DNA from: a virus
Taxonomy: Duplodnaviria; Caudoviricetes
Length of the DNA: 64,000 nt
IMG/VR virus record: IMGVR_UViG_3300049144_000095
Location: 128,001 to 192,000 of that record
Reading direction: 5' to 3' (one strand)
Part shown: positions 11,164 through 44,166 of the stretch, piece after piece
How the letters are laid out: each line of letters starts with the position of its first letter
Numbering within the stretch: position 1 is the stretch's first letter
Translations under genes and position numbers: made by a program
The notes under the pieces: model-generated
What the model saw: the letters and a program-made list of their open reading frames with translations, nothing else
The model's database searches: none
Told to the model about the DNA's origin: nothing

Positions 11164-11238
11164 ATGGACCGCGCCATCGACGCCATCGTCACGGCCATCA
11201 TCCTCATCCTCACGAAGCGGGAAGAGCGACGCCGATAG
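11164..11238 (+). CDS. 24-aa hydrophobic peptide MDRAIDAIVTAIILILTKREERRR
   Basis: Strong RBS CGGAAAGAGAGAAGG; hydrophobic core, basic tail. Confidence 0.55.
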   Translation: MDRAIDAIVTAIILILTKREERRR

Positions 11239-11256
11239 GCATCACTCCGCCCCCGA

Positions 11257-11310
11257 GGCCGAAACCCCCGACAGGGGGTCGCGGAATGGGTGTCCCGCCT
11301 GACGATGGCC
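11257..11310 (+). ncRNA. Type II hammerhead ribozyme HH1; predicted cleavage after C11280
   Basis: GGCC-GAAA-C CCCC GACA GGGG G-UC-GCGG..CCGC-CUGACGA-U-GGCC: full core and three stems. Confidence 0.88.
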
Positions 11311-11338
11311 GTCAGCAAGCAACCGGCAAGGAGAAGAA

Positions 11339-11653
11339 GTGCAGCAGATCACTTTCGGCACGAGTCACCGCCTGAGCGTCTACGCCCTGGGGGACACCAC
11401 CCGTATGAACGTCGAGCGTGCGCTGCGCGTACGCGGTCACGCCAACGTGTCCGTCACGGACGTCGCGGACGACGCCGCCTGGGAGGGGGAGAGCCGCCTG
11501 CGTCTCGTGAGCGGCGCCTACAACGGAGTCGATCCGCACACCGCTCTGTACCTGGTGGCCGACGATCAGACGGAGGCGGCAGTCGCGGAGGCCCTGCATC
11601 TGCTGAAGCCGGACGCCGTCCTCAACAGCCAGTGGATCACTCGGCCCGAGTAG
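11339..11653 (+). CDS. Hypothetical protein downstream of HH1
   Basis: GTG after AAGGAGAAGAA. Confidence 0.75.
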   Translation: MQQITFGTSHRLSVYALGDTTRMNVERALRVRGHANVSVTDVADDAAWEGESRLRLVSGAYNGVDPHTALYLVADDQTEAAVAEALHLLKPDAVLNSQWITRPE

Positions 11654-16384: not shown

Positions 16385-16690
16385 ATGACTCCCAGGGAAC
16401 TCTTTGCTGGCACAATTCCTGGCCCGTGCTGGGTGCATGGCAGCGACCTCGGGGTGGACGAGGACGGTGGCCTCTGGGTCCGGGCCACGGCGCACCTCAA
16501 GGAAGGCCTGGCATCCCGGGTGCACCCGCTCGGGGAGAGAATCACCATGAAAGACTTCCGGGAGTACTCCATACTCACTCCCGAGGGGCAGACCATCCTG
16601 GATCCTCGTCACCGAACTGAACCACTCTGGCGGCGAGTTCAGGAGTTGAGCGCCGAATCGATCGGCAGCGACTGGATCGCCGTCCACTGA
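16385..16690 (+). CDS. Hypothetical protein
   Basis: RBS GGAAAGG. Confidence 0.7.
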   Translation: MTPRELFAGTIPGPCWVHGSDLGVDEDGGLWVRATAHLKEGLASRVHPLGERITMKDFREYSILTPEGQTILDPRHRTEPLWRRVQELSAESIGSDWIAVH

Positions 16691-23872: not shown

Positions 23873-24220
23873 GTGGGACTGAACTCTCGCGTTGCCCAGA
23901 TCGTCTGGGGCCTGGTTCCGCTCGTTCTCGCCGGTTCCATTCTGGAGCTGCCGTTCATCTGGCGGGCGCTCAAGACCAAGAAACGTAGCGACATCCGGCT
24001 GGCGGTCATCTTCGGTGTGGTGCAGCTCGGCGTCTGGCTGCTCTACGTCATCTTCACGCAGGACTCCAGCACCCTGCGCGAGGACGTCCCGGCCGCCCTC
24101 ATCTGGATCAGCGCCTTCGCCGCCGCCGTCGCCGCCGCGTACGTGTACCGGCCGCTGAACAAGGAGGAGCGCATGGACCAGGCGGCCCAGGACCGGCGCC
24201 CCGGCTCGTCGTATCTGTAG
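23873..24220 (+). CDS. Small membrane protein (about 3 TM segments)
   Basis: Three hydrophobic stretches; RBS AAGGAGGG. Confidence 0.75.
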   Translation: MGLNSRVAQIVWGLVPLVLAGSILELPFIWRALKTKKRSDIRLAVIFGVVQLGVWLLYVIFTQDSSTLREDVPAALIWISAFAAAVAAAYVYRPLNKEERMDQAAQDRRPGSSYL

Positions 24221-24343
24221 GACCCCCGGCCAGCCAGCAGGCAGCGACGTTACACATGAGCAGCAACCACGGCAGGCCGGGTGAGGCCCTGAAGGGCACG
24301 ACCGCAGGCCACTGAACAGAATCAATCGGAAAGGAAACGCAGC

Positions 24344-24652
24344 ATGGGCAGCAACGACAGCTCCCTCGATGAGCGCTACCCCGAGCACGCCAAACAGCGC
24401 AAGGTCATCTCCCAGATGGACGCAGTCCAGTCCTTCCTCGACGCCATGCAGGAGCGGGGTCTCGAACTCGGGGAGACGGTGGTCACGCGGGTCGCCGTGT
24501 TCGAGGGCACCGAGGAGTGCACCGCCGTGCAGTCGGTCAGGGGGGAGAGGCTGACACGGCTGGTCAACGAGCACTTCGGCATCGACCGCTCCAAGATCCT
24601 GGCCGAGAAGGAGCAGATGATCGCCGACATGGCGGCAGGAAGTCTCCGATGA
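24344..24652 (+). CDS. Hypothetical protein
   Basis: RBS CGGAAAGGAAA. Confidence 0.75.
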   Translation: MGSNDSSLDERYPEHAKQRKVISQMDAVQSFLDAMQERGLELGETVVTRVAVFEGTEECTAVQSVRGERLTRLVNEHFGIDRSKILAEKEQMIADMAAGSLR

Positions 24653-24978
24653 AGCCGAGTGAACGCCTTCTGAAGATGATCCGCCAACAGCTCCCCGAGC
24701 TGGACATCCCCGAAGGCGCCCGGCTGGAGCGAGCTGCTGGGTCCTACGCCGGATGGAACCGCACATCGCTCGGAGCCTGGGTGTGGACGGCGGTAGACGC
24801 GAACGGCGTACCCCTGCACCGGAACTCCGAGGGACAGCCCCTGGCCATAGGTTCCCAGTGGACCATGACCGAGCTGGTGCGCGCAGGTTCCCTCGCGGCC
24901 AACCCATCGGGAGCGAACCCCGGAGACATCCACATCGAGCCGACAGACGAGAAGCAGCGAGAGGGGGTGGCACAGTGA
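24649..24978 (+). CDS. Hypothetical protein
   Basis: ATGA overlap. Confidence 0.75.
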   Translation: MKPSERLLKMIRQQLPELDIPEGARLERAAGSYAGWNRTSLGAWVWTAVDANGVPLHRNSEGQPLAIGSQWTMTELVRAGSLAANPSGANPGDIHIEPTDEKQREGVAQ

Positions 24979-25259
24979 ACGGCTACACCGAGCTGGTTGT
25001 CGATGTGTCCGGCCTGTACGACGGCTACACGGCGCCCGAAGTGATCTGCCAGCGAGCGCGGGATCACTGGCTGAACGAGTTCGCGGCGGCCGAACTCAAG
25101 CTCCCGTTCGGAGAGGGCAAGCAGCAACGGCTGGACGACGGCATGTACCTCATCTACTGGTTCGTCGGCACCGACGAGTACTGGTACTACGTCACGCTCA
25201 ACATGAATCAGTACAAGGTCACGACCGAACGGAAGGGCAAGGCGCAGAAGCGCGCCTGA
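24975..25259 (+). CDS. Hypothetical protein
   Basis: GTGA overlap. Confidence 0.75.
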   Translation: MNGYTELVVDVSGLYDGYTAPEVICQRARDHWLNEFAAAELKLPFGEGKQQRLDDGMYLIYWFVGTDEYWYYVTLNMNQYKVTTERKGKAQKRA

Positions 25260-25280
25260 CGGAACGGAAAGGGGAAGAAC

Positions 25281-25652
25281 ATGACCGATCAGCCATGGGT
25301 GCAGGTGTTCCCCGGCCCCGGCCTGGATCCGGGATTCCGCTGGGACATCAACGGCCGGGCCCAGTTCCGGCACAAGGGCTACTCAGTGGATGTCCTCATC
25401 CGGCAGGCCACCACCGACGATGCCGCGTATTACGTACGCGAGGAGCCCAGCATCAACGACGTGGTGATCGTCGGCACGGTCAGCCTGGACCACGTGGAGC
25501 TGTCGAACGCCGAGCACCGCGCTGACATCACGGAACCCTTTCAGATGAGCCAAGCCCTCGCCTACGTGCTCGACGCGGCCGTGGAGGACGCTCGTCGGAT
25601 GGTGGGCCGCCTGGTAGAGCGGGTGGCGGAGATCGACGCGAAGCAGAACTGA
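25281..25652 (+). CDS. Hypothetical protein
   Basis: RBS CGGAAAGGGGAAG. Confidence 0.8.
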   Translation: MTDQPWVQVFPGPGLDPGFRWDINGRAQFRHKGYSVDVLIRQATTDDAAYYVREEPSINDVVIVGTVSLDHVELSNAEHRADITEPFQMSQALAYVLDAAVEDARRMVGRLVERVAEIDAKQN

Positions 25653-25675
25653 CCCCAGGCCGAAACCGGGCAGCC
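25649..25675 (+). repeat. Truncated 5' half of hammerhead; direct repeat of 26011-26037
   Basis: CTGACCCCAGGCCGAAACCGGGCAGCC vs CTGACCGCAGGCCGAAACCGGGCATCC (25/27 identical). Confidence 0.8.
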
Positions 25676-25708
25676 AATTCAGTCTTTAGAAGGGAGGGAG
25701 TGGGACCA

Positions 25709-26014
25709 ATGGTGAGCATCAACGATCTGGATGGACCGGTGCGAACGGTCGCCGACGTCGTGCGCCAGAGGAAGATCGGCGCTCACTTCGTCGCGCACCG
25801 AGACATCGGCCTGGATCCTCAGGGCAACTTCTGGCTCCGACGCGAAGGCAAGGTGGATCTGCTTCCGGGACTGAGGAAGAAGATCGCTATTGCATGCGTC
25901 CGGGATTCGGGTCTGCGCCTGAGTTCCAGTCAGACGATCGCGACCGACAAGGTGCAACGTCTCGCCGACCCCGTGGACGACACCACTTGGATCAAGGTTC
26001 AAGGGACCTTCTGA
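25709..26014 (+). CDS. Hypothetical protein flanked by hammerhead-derived direct repeats
   Basis: RBS AAGGGAGGGAG. Confidence 0.7.
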   Translation: MVSINDLDGPVRTVADVVRQRKIGAHFVAHRDIGLDPQGNFWLRREGKVDLLPGLRKKIAIACVRDSGLRLSSSQTIATDKVQRLADPVDDTTWIKVQGTF

Positions 26015-26081
26015 CCGCAGGCCGAAACCGGGCATCCAGCCCGGTCGCGCAGTGAGGCTGCGCCTGACGATGGCCGTCAGC
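26011..26081 (+). ncRNA. Type II hammerhead ribozyme HH3; predicted cleavage after C26046
   Basis: GGCC-GAAA-C CGGGC AUCCA GCCCG G-UC-GCGCAG UGAGG CUGCGC-CUGACGA-U-GGCC; stem II extended by CUGAC/GUCAG. Confidence 0.9.
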
Positions 26082-26105
26082 GGAGGAACCGGAAAGGGGA
26101 AGAGC

Positions 26106-26429
26106 GTGGGAGACCAGAAGGACGTCTACCTGATCGGCGAGCAGTACTCGAACAAGGCCACAGGTCGAAAGGGCGTCGCCGTGATCCGCCCGGCAGTGCT
26201 CGAAGGGCTGTTGTCGGAGGAGCCGAAGGTCATCACGACATCCCCCTGTTGCCCCGACAAGGTCCGGCACCTGTCCTACGCCGACATCACGTCGAGCCTG
26301 GCTGCCAAGCAGGGCGGCTGGGCCATGCAGTGCAAGGAGTGCAAGTGGCACTACAAGGTCGTCGCTGAGCAGACCGGAGCCACCCGGCTCGGCCTGTACG
26401 GCGTGCGCTGGATCTCGCAGGGGTTCTGA
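26106..26429 (+). CDS. Hypothetical protein (PCC..CKEC) downstream of HH3
   Basis: GTG after CGGAAAGGGGAAG. Confidence 0.75.
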   Translation: MGDQKDVYLIGEQYSNKATGRKGVAVIRPAVLEGLLSEEPKVITTSPCCPDKVRHLSYADITSSLAAKQGGWAMQCKECKWHYKVVAEQTGATRLGLYGVRWISQGF

Positions 26430-26447
26430 GGAAGGGGAGACAGAGGC

Positions 26448-26801
26448 ATGGGAAGCAACCTGAGCGGCGTACAGGCTGGGACCGAGCTGCTGCTGGCAAG
26501 GAAGGGCTTCGGCAGGCGCAACCTGGACCAGGAGCCCAGGAAGGTGCAGGTGCACAAGGTCGGCACCAAGCTGGTGTACATCCAGGATGGCACCACCGCC
26601 ACCGCGTACCGGATCGAGAACGGCCGGTCCAACTCTCAGTACAACGACTACGAACTGTGGCGGCCGGAGGAGTGGGCTGCGGAGGGCAGGCGTGCCGAGC
26701 TGGAGAAGGCCCTGAACGCTCACGGTGTCGAGGTCTGGCGCAAGCAGCAGCCGATCCGCGTCCTGGAGAAGCTGCTCGCCGTCCTCGACGGAGAGCTGTA
26801 G
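26448..26801 (+). CDS. Hypothetical protein, possible small beta-barrel N-terminus
   Basis: V.VHKVGTKLVYI pattern; RBS GGAAGGGGAG. Confidence 0.75.
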   Translation: MGSNLSGVQAGTELLLARKGFGRRNLDQEPRKVQVHKVGTKLVYIQDGTTATAYRIENGRSNSQYNDYELWRPEEWAAEGRRAELEKALNAHGVEVWRKQQPIRVLEKLLAVLDGEL

Positions 26802-26920
26802 CCGAACACCCCCTGACCTGGCCTTCCAGCATGGAATTCCACCCTGGAAGACACGAGGAAGCGTCAAGAAGAGAAGTGGAAGCGCCCCGGAAGGGGGCTG
26901 GAACCGAAAAGGAAGAAGAC

Positions 26921-27334
26921 ATGGAACGGCCTGAGCCGAGGCAAGGGGACATCGTGATCGTCAACGGCCGTCGGAGCCGGATCGATGGTTTCGATAAGAA
27001 CGGAGGCGCCCGGCTCCGCAACAGCAAGTGGGTGTGCATGTCGGAGTTCATCAAGAACGCCGAGGGCGCTTGGGTGCGCGAGGCGGAGGCGATGTCCGGG
27101 GTGCCCGAGTTGGAGCGGCCCGCCAAGGGGGACGCTGCGCAGGCGTTGTCAGCAGCGGCCGAACACTTGCGACAGAGCCCTCTGCGCTACGTGACCGACG
27201 AACGGTACGCACTTCTCCTTGCTGACTCGATGCAGGCGCTCGGGAGGATCGGTTCCTACGGCGCCGAGTTCCTGGACCGGGTGGGCGGCGCCGAGATGGT
27301 GCGGCTGGCGCGTTTCATCAATGCCAACGCCTGA
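26921..27334 (+). CDS. Hypothetical protein
   Basis: RBS AAAAGGAAGAAG. Confidence 0.7.
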   Translation: MERPEPRQGDIVIVNGRRSRIDGFDKNGGARLRNSKWVCMSEFIKNAEGAWVREAEAMSGVPELERPAKGDAAQALSAAAEHLRQSPLRYVTDERYALLLADSMQALGRIGSYGAEFLDRVGGAEMVRLARFINANA

Positions 27335-27346
27335 CCTCGATCAGGA

Positions 27347-27620
27347 AGAGGGGGTCATGCCCCTCGGGCCAGACCTCCTTGCGAGGCAGGCAACTCGACT
27401 TCTCCATCCCTGTTGTTACGACCGGGGATGGGGGGAGTCCAGGGGCGCTTCTCGTGATCCGAGCATCGGAAGCGCCCCTGGACAGCGCAAGAGTCGGCGA
27501 GGGTGAGAGTATGCGAGTCACCAGGGTGGACGCAGACTTCACTGGCAACTCGCACAGCGTAACGACGTAAGCACCGTCGTCTATGCCGCCTCTACGCCGT
27601 TGTTGACGGACAAGACGGCG
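27347..27620 (+). ncRNA. Densely structured non-coding segment (candidate ncRNA or leader)
   Basis: At least six stem-loops incl. perfect 15-bp stem 27437-27451/27469-27483. Confidence 0.4.
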
Positions 27621-27665
27621 GTCATGTTTGATGTGGCGAACCTGCATGGGAAGGAGAGACGCGAC

Positions 27666-28760
27666 ATGGCGAACGATGAAGCCAGGAGCGCGATCGAAAA
27701 GCTGCTGGGGTTTGAGTTCGTGTCAGACCCCCGCAAGTCCAAGGTCTCGATCCCCAAGGCCCCGAAGGGGCATCCGGCGGACAGGCCCTACCCCTTTCCG
27801 GCCCGAGAGTTCACGCCGGAGATGGCCAAGGACATCCTGAAGTACCGGGTCATCCGCATGGAGGTGATGCCGAAGGCCCTCAGGCATGCCGAGATGACCG
27901 GCAACCGGCGCTTCCTGATGGCGGCACTGAAGGGATCGCGGCACGACAAGGGCTGGATCCGCCGGTTCCAGGACAACGAAATGCACCCCGGCACCACGGA
28001 CCCCGTCTGCTTCACGCGTGACGGTTTCGTCCTGGATGGCCAGCACCGCTTCGCCGCTTGCGTGCTTTCCGGCGTCCCCTTCGAGGTCCCGGTCATGGTG
28101 AACACACCCTGGGACACTTTCGCAGTGAAGGACACGGGGCGCGGCCGGACGGCCGGACAGCTCCTCGGTGAGGTCCCCTACGCGGACTACTGCGCTGCGG
28201 CGGCCAAGGTCATCCTGCCGGTGATCTTCGGGACCGAGCGGGAGCAATGGCACCTCTCGGACGCCACGAACCGGGAGATCTACGACCTGGTGCACGGCTG
28301 GCCCTACTTCCACGAGAGCGGCCCGACCGGGCAAGGCGGCTGGATGAAGGAGGTCGTCGGTGCGGCAGCCAGCCGGATCCCGCTGACCGCGCTGGCCGCT
28401 TCCACGATGATGGCGCTCGCGGCCGGGGCCGACCCGTTCCACGTGCAGAGTTTCCTGGACGGCTTGAAGCCGGGCTATTCCCAGGGCTTCCCCGACATCA
28501 GCGAGAAGGGCAAGGACCCGCGTTTCCTGCTGCGCCGCAAGTACCTCCGAGCGTCAGCCATCGGAAAGTCCATCACCGACGTGGAGCGTCGCCAGCAGGT
28601 GGGTCACGTCCGCCGGGCCATGTCCATCTGGCTGGACTACCAGGGCGGGTTCGGCATCACCGAGCTGAAGAACCTGCCCAGCGTTCCCGAACACGGCAAG
28701 CTACCCGAAGTCTGGCGGGCCGACAACGTCCGTGAGTTCCACCGAGAGAAGGTTTCCTGA
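27666..28760 (+). CDS. ParB/Srx-like (DGQHR) N-terminal domain protein
   Basis: DPVCF..DG.VLDGQHRFAACVLSG..F..KDTGRGRT motif; RBS GGAAGGAGAG. Confidence 0.75.
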   Translation: MANDEARSAIEKLLGFEFVSDPRKSKVSIPKAPKGHPADRPYPFPAREFTPEMAKDILKYRVIRMEVMPKALRHAEMTGNRRFLMAALKGSRHDKGWIRRFQDNEMHPGTTDPVCFTRDGFVLDGQHRFAACVLSGVPFEVPVMVNTPWDTFAVKDTGRGRTAGQLLGEVPYADYCAAAAKVILPVIFGTEREQWHLSDATNREIYDLVHGWPYFHESGPTGQGGWMKEVVGAAASRIPLTALAASTMMALAAGADPFHVQSFLDGLKPGYSQGFPDISEKGKDPRFLLRRKYLRASAIGKSITDVERRQQVGHVRRAMSIWLDYQGGFGITELKNLPSVPEHGKLPEVWRADNVREFHREKVS

Positions 28761-43619: not shown

Positions 43620-43894
43620 TTGTCGCTCCCCCAGTCCATGATCGCCTTGTCGACCTTCTCGGCCCACGGTTCGCCGAACTCCTTCCGGGAGGACACGCTG
43701 TTGTGGAACGACGCCTGCGCACCCGGATCGTCCGGCGGAAAGTGACTCACCGCTCGCGCCATCGCAGCGAGGCAGGATTGTGCCTCCTCACGGCTGAGGC
43801 GGTACCCCTCCTCAAGGAGGGTGAGGATGCCGTCGACCCTTCTCAGCGCATCCTCGCTGCTGAAGTCCGAGCCCTCGGCAGGTCGCACGCTCAC
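43616..43894 (-). CDS. Hypothetical protein, paralog of 43891..44166
   Basis: Y.L.R.EA..CL.AMA...EPWA.KV motif. Confidence 0.75.
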   Translation of the reverse strand: MSVRPAEGSDFSSEDALRRVDGILTLLEEGYRLSREEAQSCLAAMARAVSHFPPDDPGAQASFHNSVSSRKEFGEPWAEKVDKAIMDWGSDK

Positions 43895-44166
43895 GCGTGG
43901 TCCCTCCAGCCGAGTACGTCGCGGCCGACCTTGAGGGCCCAGGGCTCGAAGCTGTCGCCGTACATCTCGACGGCCTTGCCAAAGTTGTCCACAAGGTCGG
44001 CGTCGCCAGGACGGCCCCTGTGCAGCGTTATGGCCATGGCCTCCAGGCAGCCGACCGCCTCGGAGCGGGTGAGTCCGTAGTTCGCCTCGATGGCCGCGAG
44101 GATCTTGTTCACCTCGGCCAGCATCGGTTCGGTGTGCCGACTCGGATGGTCGGCTGGCGTTGTCAC
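43891..44166 (-). CDS. Hypothetical protein, paralog of 43616..43894
   Basis: Same motif; RBS GAAAGGGG. Confidence 0.75.
   Translation of the reverse strand: MTTPADHPSRHTEPMLAEVNKILAAIEANYGLTRSEAVGCLEAMAITLHRGRPGDADLVDNFGKAVEMYGDSFEPWALKVGRDVLGWRDHA

Follow-up and report, generated by a model that had tools for sequence, protein, structure and literature searches.

Type II hammerhead ribozymes have been known between the genes of phages and prophages since 2011 (Perreault et al. 2011, PMC3088659), and their presence raises the question of what they do there and whether they are controlled. The locus studied here poses this question in a narrower form. A hammerhead lying between two small phage genes ends in a five-base tail that is complementary to two other strands, one upstream of the ribozyme and one in its catalytic core. 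Does the tail help the ribozyme to fold, or does it compete with it? The window that we analysed (the whole stretch of 64,000 nucleotides, to which all positions refer unless stated otherwise) corresponds to bases 128001-192000 of the 251 kb IMG/VR record IMGVR_UViG_3300049144_000095, which is complete according to CheckV. The record occurs in soil metagenomes alone (five soil-metagenome DNA runs listed, zero RNA runs), and its source virus is a soil jumbo phage.

Two hammerheads with a common core

Positions 26019-26080 of the + strand hold all the parts of a type II hammerhead, HH3, placed between two small genes. The upstream ORF (25700..26014, + strand; start also given as 25709) encodes 104 aa and stops at the UGA of 26012-26014. 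The downstream gene (26106..26429, + strand) encodes 107 aa and is the counterpart, by nucleotide match, of gene 247 of the Streptomyces phage Satis. Its GUG start at 26106 and the purine-rich ribosome-binding region before it occupy 26091..26108 on the + strand. A PHROGs search of the genes flanking HH3 gave no informative match, with no family match for the 104-aa or the 107-aa product, and a scan of positions 24000-28000 found neither promoters nor terminators. The upstream gene (25709-26011) has a weak paralogue ~9 kb upstream, at 16385-16687 (25% identity over 89 aa, E = 2e-5 in a two-sequence comparison).

The ribozyme, all of it on the + strand, opens with an unpaired A that is invariant in the family (26019) and the 5' strand of stem II, GGCC (26020-26023; together 26019..26023), followed by the core bases G12 A13 A14 (26024..26026). 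The stem III hairpin (26027..26045) pairs 26027-26033 with 26039-26045 around the loop AUCCA, its 7 bp including A15.1-U16.1 (A26027 paired with U26045). The triplet GUC (26044-26046) ends in C17, at 26046..26046, and self-cleavage is predicted 3' of C26046. The stem I hairpin (26047..26063), with which the downstream mRNA would begin after cleavage, pairs 26047-26053 with 26057-26063 (6 bp and a U-G closing pair, loop GAG). The core bases C3 U4 G5 A6 C7 G8 A9 (26064-26070) are followed by one extra U (26071), which falls outside the invariant core set and completes the segment 26064..26071, and then by the 3' strand of stem II, GGCC (26072..26075). The tail GUCAG (26076..26080) closes the element. 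It can pair with the CUGAC at 26011..26015 on the same strand, extending stem II in the active fold, or with core bases 26064-26068 in a masked fold, whose hairpin reaches 6 bp (26064-26069 with 26075-26080). The upstream CUGAC contains the stop codon UGA of the preceding ORF and is separated from stem II by the spacer CGCA, the A of which is 26019. HH3 thus has the conserved core, an N-U-H triplet (GUC) together with A15.1-U16.1, and three helices with covariation support; loops cap stems I and III and the ends lie in stem II, which is the type II topology.

The first-pass annotation had described HH3 as the second type II hammerhead of the window, with a core identical to that of HH1 and with different stems that still pair, and every one of these sequence statements holds. 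HH1 (11256..11315, + strand) has GGCC at 11257-11260, GUC at 11278-11280, CUGACGA at 11299-11305 and the tail at 11311-11315. It shares with HH3 the core, the extra U and the tail, and its stems differ from those of HH3 yet remain paired. The distances from the cut to the next start, 60 nt for HH3 (C26046 to the GUG at 26106) and 59 nt for HH1 (GUG at 11339), were confirmed, as were the stop and start codons. The tail's upstream partner, with its embedded stop, was found for HH3 and not for HH1, which has no upstream CUGAC and a stem I of just 4 bp. Compared with related copies (L062, L030), HH1 looks to have lost ~4 nt of the 5' strand of this stem. A 24-codon ORF at 11164-11238, which has a hydrophobic core and is preceded by a good ribosome-binding site, stops 18 nt short of HH1 and may be a micro-peptide gene.

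The Rfam model RF02276 (Hammerhead_II) matches HH3 and HH1 end to end, with 30.4 and 24.2 bits, both under its gathering cut-off of 37 bits. The E-value of HH3 is 1.7e-4 on 300 nt and 0.037 on the whole 64 kb window. An Rfam run at the gathering threshold reported only tRNAs. Five tRNA genes cluster at 47697-49207 on the - strand; in the Rfam alignment, one of them (48619-48704) carries 24 inserted nt in the region of the anticodon arm, and it may be an intron-bearing or otherwise unusual tRNA. Among relatives, RF02276 matched at E<=1 eight sampled copies of HH3's form, with 26-33 bits and none reaching 37; the remaining copies in those 11 sampled loci were not listed at E<=1. Since relatives of the same form also score 26-33 bits, the low score of HH3 appears to reflect the Rfam model rather than decay. 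This form of hammerhead is missed by the Rfam cut-off, and phage annotations therefore probably under-count it.

A family of structured hammerheads across phages

A search of the full replicon and of relatives had been proposed in the first-pass annotation. Within the 251 kb record, the motif has two matches on the + strand and none on the - strand (reversed-pattern control, 0), and the family covariance model R1, run over the whole record, found no copy beyond HH3 and HH1. A weak match at record position 45021-45095 is not a hammerhead, as C replaces U4. Outside the record the motif is abundant. Scans of IMG/VR for the exact pattern located the extra-U form at 139 loci (73 with C at core position 7, 46 with U, 11 with G and 9 with A) and the form lacking this base at 120 loci at least. 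A pattern scan of genome contigs gave 116 raw matches, of which 19 pass the stem filter; most of the others are chance matches with long spacers.

The nearest cultured relatives are the Streptomyces phages Satis, Kradal, EhyElimayoE, Quantum, JustBecause, Kela and Frankenweenie. Megablast against phages gave no match, and these relatives appeared solely with the more sensitive blastn, matching positions 26011-26430 (the ribozyme and the next gene) at 72-75% identity. In Satis, the counterpart of HH3 precedes gene 247 and a second copy precedes gene 248, both in unannotated gaps. The Burkholderia phage BcepGomr carries the same module, with 95% identity to HH3 over stem I, core and tail; this copy (L004 1466-1541, record 43868-43905 region) is unannotated and belongs to a proteobacterial phage, whose host phylum is unrelated.

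We aligned 40 diverse copies to assess covariation. Stem I is paired in 98.6% of the cases and stem III in 100%; double-sided changes affect seven of the seven pairs of stem I and four of the six of stem III, and stem II never varies. The covariation score is 0.52, against 0.13 in shuffles (equalled by 0 of 500) and no more than 0.12 with slid partners, while paired cells overall make up 92% of the alignment against 72% in shuffles; these statistics are not corrected for phylogeny. HH3 itself has stems that are compensated relative to the copies of Satis, L057, L079 and L094. The strong covariation of the stems shows that this is a real family of structured hammerheads, of which HH3 is an ordinary member.

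The layout of the loci is also constrained. In ~90% of 104 clean viral copies the stop codon of the upstream ORF ends 0-9 nt from GGCC, and it often provides the invariant A or overlaps the first G of GGCC. A downstream start was called for 42 tailed copies; it follows the ribozyme by 22-34 nt in 40 of them (median 28), and the distance from cut to start is 52-62 nt in all but three of the 42. The matching spacing that had been remarked upon for HH1 and HH3 is therefore not special to this pair and reflects a constraint on the family. The downstream genes are diverse. They encode proteins mostly of 45-200 aa, and an all-vs-all BLASTP (E<=1e-5) leaves 85 out of 107 without a homologue elsewhere in the set; a sample of them includes an ArdA-like anti-restriction protein and an exonuclease. 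With hundreds of phage copies standing before such unrelated proteins, the earlier description of a reusable module is borne out. Some loci of the form without the extra U are particularly dense, with seven pattern matches in ~4 kb in L271 (tail in 0 of 5 clean copies) and four matches ~300-400 nt apart in L280. At the end of a locus with a tailed hammerhead, L047 1-155 is a partial match to the HEARO RNA (38 bits, cut-off 83).

The window also holds a truncated hammerhead remnant (25649..25676, + strand), ~360 nt upstream of HH3, made of CUGAC, a spacer, GGCC, GAAAC and, from stem III, the 5' half and the loop. The remnant is followed by unrelated sequence and then by the ribosome-binding site of gene 25709-26014. 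The remnant is inactive because it has no core. As it lies ahead of gene 25709-26014 and HH3 after it, the gene is flanked by a dead and a live copy of the hammerhead, an arrangement suggestive of acquisition or shuffling of the gene through recombination at the motif. At the corresponding place, Satis carries two copies, both intact.

The tail tracks the catalytic core

If the tail pairs with the core, its first base (N') should follow the one free base of the core strand (N7). Among copies with the extra U, a tail of the form N'UCAG directly follows stem II in 54 of 124 clean copies, and N' complements N7 in all 54 (42 C/G, 11 U/A, 1 G/C). The form without the extra U is a data set independent of this one; among the matches listed, it has the tail in 29 of 102 clean copies, with N' and N7 matching in 29 of 29. 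Together, among the matches listed, 83 of 226 clean copies are tailed and N' is complementary to N7 in 83 of 83, in the states C7/G (66), U7/A (16) and G7/C (1). The permutation P of this association is ~1e-18, uncorrected for relatedness. Counts of core/tail pairs in the extra-U form are bimodal: 55 copies have five pairs out of five and the rest resemble the background, whereas each shifted register yields a single copy with five out of five.

Several observations point to repeated, compensated change. The near-identical copies L074 and L082 have stem III in common and differ at both N7 and N'; further double changes separate L011/L039 from L136, and L293 from L360/L367. The U7 state is present in nine separate clusters of stem I. 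One copy (L080) keeps all five tail-core pairs by way of a G-U wobble, and two copies with four pairs out of five (L061, L097) have G opposite U4. The rule holds in the 25 extra-U tailed copies that lack CUGA within 16 nt upstream. The length of the pairing is also limited: the base following the tail is G in only 1 of 83 copies, among the matches listed, despite a near-invariant potential partner, C2.1, and the masked helix is thus held at 5-6 bp.

Bases C3 to A6 build the catalytic pocket of the active hammerhead, and a Watson-Crick helix over C3-N7 would for this reason exclude catalysis. Because N' tracks N7 in 83 of 83 copies, among the matches listed, even without an upstream partner, we conclude from these patterns of change that the core-masking hairpin is under selection as an alternative fold, predicted to be inactive. 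The core-blocking CUGACG/CGUCAG hairpin suggested for HH3 alone is thus found to be kept by compensatory change across the family. Likewise, the proposal of two alternative partners for the tail is upheld by the complete match of N' to N7 among the matches listed, by the association of the upstream strand with the tail (25/54 vs 6/70, see below) and by the flip of the predicted HH3 fold. Two mutually exclusive conserved structures, the hammerhead fold and the tail-core hairpin, are present, as expected of a bistable switch. The tail is dispensable to many members: 143 of 226, among the matches listed, have none and would work, if at all, tail-free, and tailed and untailed copies occur together in 4 of 21 multi-copy loci, among the matches listed.

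A pseudoknot between loop I and the 3' tail has been described for most type II hammerheads, though not all (PMC3088659). Across the family studied here, complementarity between loop I and tail averages 3.22, against 3.28 +/- 0.06 for shuffled partners, and loop I varies freely irrespective of the tail. The longest complementarity is 3 in HH3 and in HH1, and we assign a pseudoknot to neither.

Predicted energetics of the two folds

The minimum-energy fold of region 26005-26085 is the hammerhead with extended stem II, at -37.5 kcal/mol. Without the upstream strand, the masked hairpin becomes the minimum and takes 70% of the ensemble, and the 3' product is predicted to fold into stem I and the masked hairpin. 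Constrained folds of 26004-26083 give -36.6 kcal/mol for the active and -37.2 for the masked state, with a direct-path barrier of ~13 each way, in nearest-neighbour energies that leave out tertiary contacts and Mg2+. HH3 is thus predicted to have active and masked folds of about equal energy and to be bistable.

The same computations separate the family into three groups. Copies with a tail and no upstream strand favour the masked fold in 86% of cases, by a median of 2.1 kcal/mol; those with both have active and masked folds about equal in predicted energy; and 71% of the tail-free ones have the hammerhead fold as their minimum. For HH1, the predicted active fold (-24.6 kcal/mol) is 9 kcal/mol less stable than the masked one (-33.9). 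Given this difference and its 4-bp stem I, HH1 may be weak or decaying.

A proposed mechanism for tailed hammerheads and its alternatives

The reading that we prefer, with confidence and doubt about evenly matched, is that HH3 is a working type II hammerhead whose tail is a competitor strand, so that cleavage is followed by masking of the core. We infer cleavage in vivo, an order of events and a benefit of the element as follows. Cutting after C26046, HH3 would divide the transcript of a run of small + strand genes. The stem III hairpin would then close the upstream message, and the downstream message would carry the stem I hairpin right at its 5'-OH end, 59 nt before the GUG. On the upstream CUGAC, the tail GUCAG would lengthen stem II and stabilise the active fold; on the catalytic CUGAC(G), it would form a 6-bp hairpin incompatible with catalysis. 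In a first step, stem II and its extension would form during transcription and the RNA would cut itself; the hammerhead should have the lead in the emerging RNA, as transcription completes stem II five bases ahead of the tail. In a second step, the tail would flip onto the core and free the upstream fragment, otherwise gripped by a clamp of 4+5 bp. The flip would make the cut irreversible and leave two stacked hairpins ~25 nt before the start codon, with a free ribosome-binding site. Finally, RNAs whose tail captures the core first would remain uncut, and the balance of the two pairings would therefore set the ratio of cut to uncut RNA. The idea of a product lock is weaker for copies without the upstream strand, because stem I alone structures the 5' end and a 4-bp stem II should release the product unaided. 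Anti-Shine-Dalgarno pairing between the leader and the 5' fragment, judged by eye, was marginal in HH3 and absent in Satis, and we set it aside.

What could shift the balance between the folds? There is no aptamer-like conserved domain, and the only candidate input is a terminating ribosome, as the first-pass annotation had suggested. A ribosome on the UGA at 26012-26014 would cover CUGAC and GGCC, the tail would mask the core and the ribozyme would be off; were the upstream gene not translated, the extended stem II would form and the RNA would be cut, so that intergenic cleavage would depend on translation of the first gene. The distribution of the upstream strand is circumstantial evidence in this respect. 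Of the 54 tailed copies of the extra-U form, 25 have a CUGA(N7) strand 8-10 nt ahead of GGCC, against 6 of 70 untailed ones and 1.25% of shuffles, and in 19 out of 22 cases the upstream ORF stops at the UGA of this strand. Masking of the strand flips the predicted fold of HH3, and the stop lies within 0-9 nt of the ribozyme in ~90% of copies, even if such tight packing may be plain genome economy. However, a ribosome on the stop would also cover stem II and disrupt any hammerhead so placed, tailed or not, and the tail-core pairing is kept in the 25 extra-U copies without upstream CUGA. The matching strand is also found in 0 of the 29 tailed copies without the extra U, among the matches listed. 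It occurs in actinophage-like jumbo phages and in Burkholderia phages, a lineage that includes the phage of HH3, cultured Streptomyces phages and Burkholderia phages. As it is missing from most tailed copies, the upstream strand is best seen as a lineage-specific add-on to an older tail-core pairing. We consider gating by translation plausible, because of the embedded stop codon, but rather unlikely.

The tail could also be a constitutive attenuator, lowering the fraction or the rate of self-cleavage gene by gene, with no role after cleavage and no signal to respond to. The masked fold is indeed predicted to be the more stable in 86% of the tailed copies without an upstream partner, the length of the hairpin is capped, and the coexistence of tailed and untailed copies in 4 of 21 multi-copy loci, among the matches listed, suits gene-by-gene tuning. 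Yet this leaves unexplained why one lineage added a third strand that restores the active fold, and a weaker stem II or weaker core contacts would be a simpler route to the same end. This makes the attenuator an unlikely explanation.

It is more doubtful still that HH3 is an inactive or decaying relic, its motif kept by descent after the loss of cleavage. The sub-threshold Rfam scores, which might suggest it, are shared by relatives of the same form and are probably attributable to the model. The extra U does adjoin A9, HH1 combines a stem I of 4 bp with an active fold that is predicted to be poor, and a truncated copy lies 360 nt upstream, but HH3 retains all the invariant core bases and has stems compensated against those of its relatives.

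HH3 alone could not tell whether the tail is a simple clamp that only lengthens stem II, its match to the core being incidental to an upstream strand that also reads CUGAC, as its two potential partners are identical and its minimum-energy fold is the clamped hammerhead. The comparison between copies separates them: N' tracks N7 in the 25 of 54 extra-U tailed copies without upstream CUGA and in the 29 tailed copies without the extra U, among the matches listed, which have no upstream partner, and HH1, in the same phage, has the tail without the upstream strand. These sequence patterns contradict a clamp-only reading at the level of the family, and we regard it as very improbable. Least credible of all is a protein-bound inverted repeat in the DNA (CTGACG..CGTCAG) for which RNA folding is irrelevant: compensatory changes would keep a DNA palindrome as well, but one of its arms is the invariant hammerhead core and always on the coding strand, pairs of the G-U type are found in L080, with G opposite U4 in L061 and L097, and the neighbouring genes are unrelated across loci, with no associated regulator gene.

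Relation to known hammerheads

The family resembles the type II hammerheads of RF02276 in its catalytic core, its GUC site, its intergenic position beside small phage genes and its frequent presence in several copies per phage; ArdA-like anti-restriction genes are among the downstream genes of both (PMC3088659). It differs in that HH3, with 30.4 bits, stays under the cut-off of 37, stem II is always the same 4-bp GGCC, preceded by an invariant unpaired A, and HH3's form has the extra U after A9. Unlike most RF02276 members, it lacks the pseudoknot between loop I and tail, and the tail complements the core instead. In searches of the openly accessible full-text literature, no paper was found to describe a hairpin between tail and core in type II hammerheads, a tail covarying with N7 or a third strand with an embedded stop codon.

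Two other systems offer parallels. In the synthetic insulator RiboJ, a 23-nt hairpin stands between the sTRSV hammerhead and the ribosome-binding site (PMC8794103). As in HH3, hammerhead, hairpin and ribosome-binding site stand at set distances, the device is used before unrelated genes, and cleavage strips the upstream context (in HH3, by prediction) to leave a standard structured leader. The hairpin of RiboJ is separate from the ribozyme, whereas that of HH3 is made of the catalytic core and so would exist only with the ribozyme unfolded or spent. By this analogy, the HH3-type element looks like a natural counterpart of RiboJ. The hammerheads of Avsunviroidae and of plant satellite RNAs are active transiently, before a more stable alternative fold sets in. 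There too, an equally or more stable fold hides the core, limiting cleavage to a window during or just after transcription. The alternative fold of viroids is the whole rod-like or branched genome and serves the replication of a circular RNA, in contrast to the dedicated 5-nt tail found here in a phage mRNA leader, with a third strand that overlaps a stop codon in one lineage.

There is a precedent for the extra U as well. The hammerhead of chrysanthemum chlorotic mottle viroid reportedly has an extra nucleotide between A9 and G10.1, an observation attributed to De la Pena and Flores in 2001. In both cases, one base is inserted between the core and stem II, and in the viroid it is tolerated by an active ribozyme. 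That ribozyme is a type III hammerhead, whereas the insert of HH3 is a U fixed in a lineage of type II phage hammerheads. The extra-U lineage is also the only one with the upstream CUGA strand (25/54 vs 0/29, among the matches listed).

Implications for the control of phage hammerheads

The role and control of intergenic phage hammerheads can now be addressed with a result at the level of a family instead of a single copy. A core-masking tail kept in 83 of 226 copies, among the matches listed, makes their regulation testable, and the hypothesis of timed or gated self-cleavage is concrete and cheap to test, with culturable systems at hand: Satis, Kradal or Kela on Streptomyces, and BcepGomr on Burkholderia. 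Tentatively, and with a minor chance of being right, one may go further and envisage a three-strand switch coupled to translation, in which ribosome traffic on the first gene would arm or mask the hammerhead and at least a third of the family would be regulated and not constitutive. In such a switch, the tail would be contested by two identical CUGAC strands, one of which contains the upstream stop codon.
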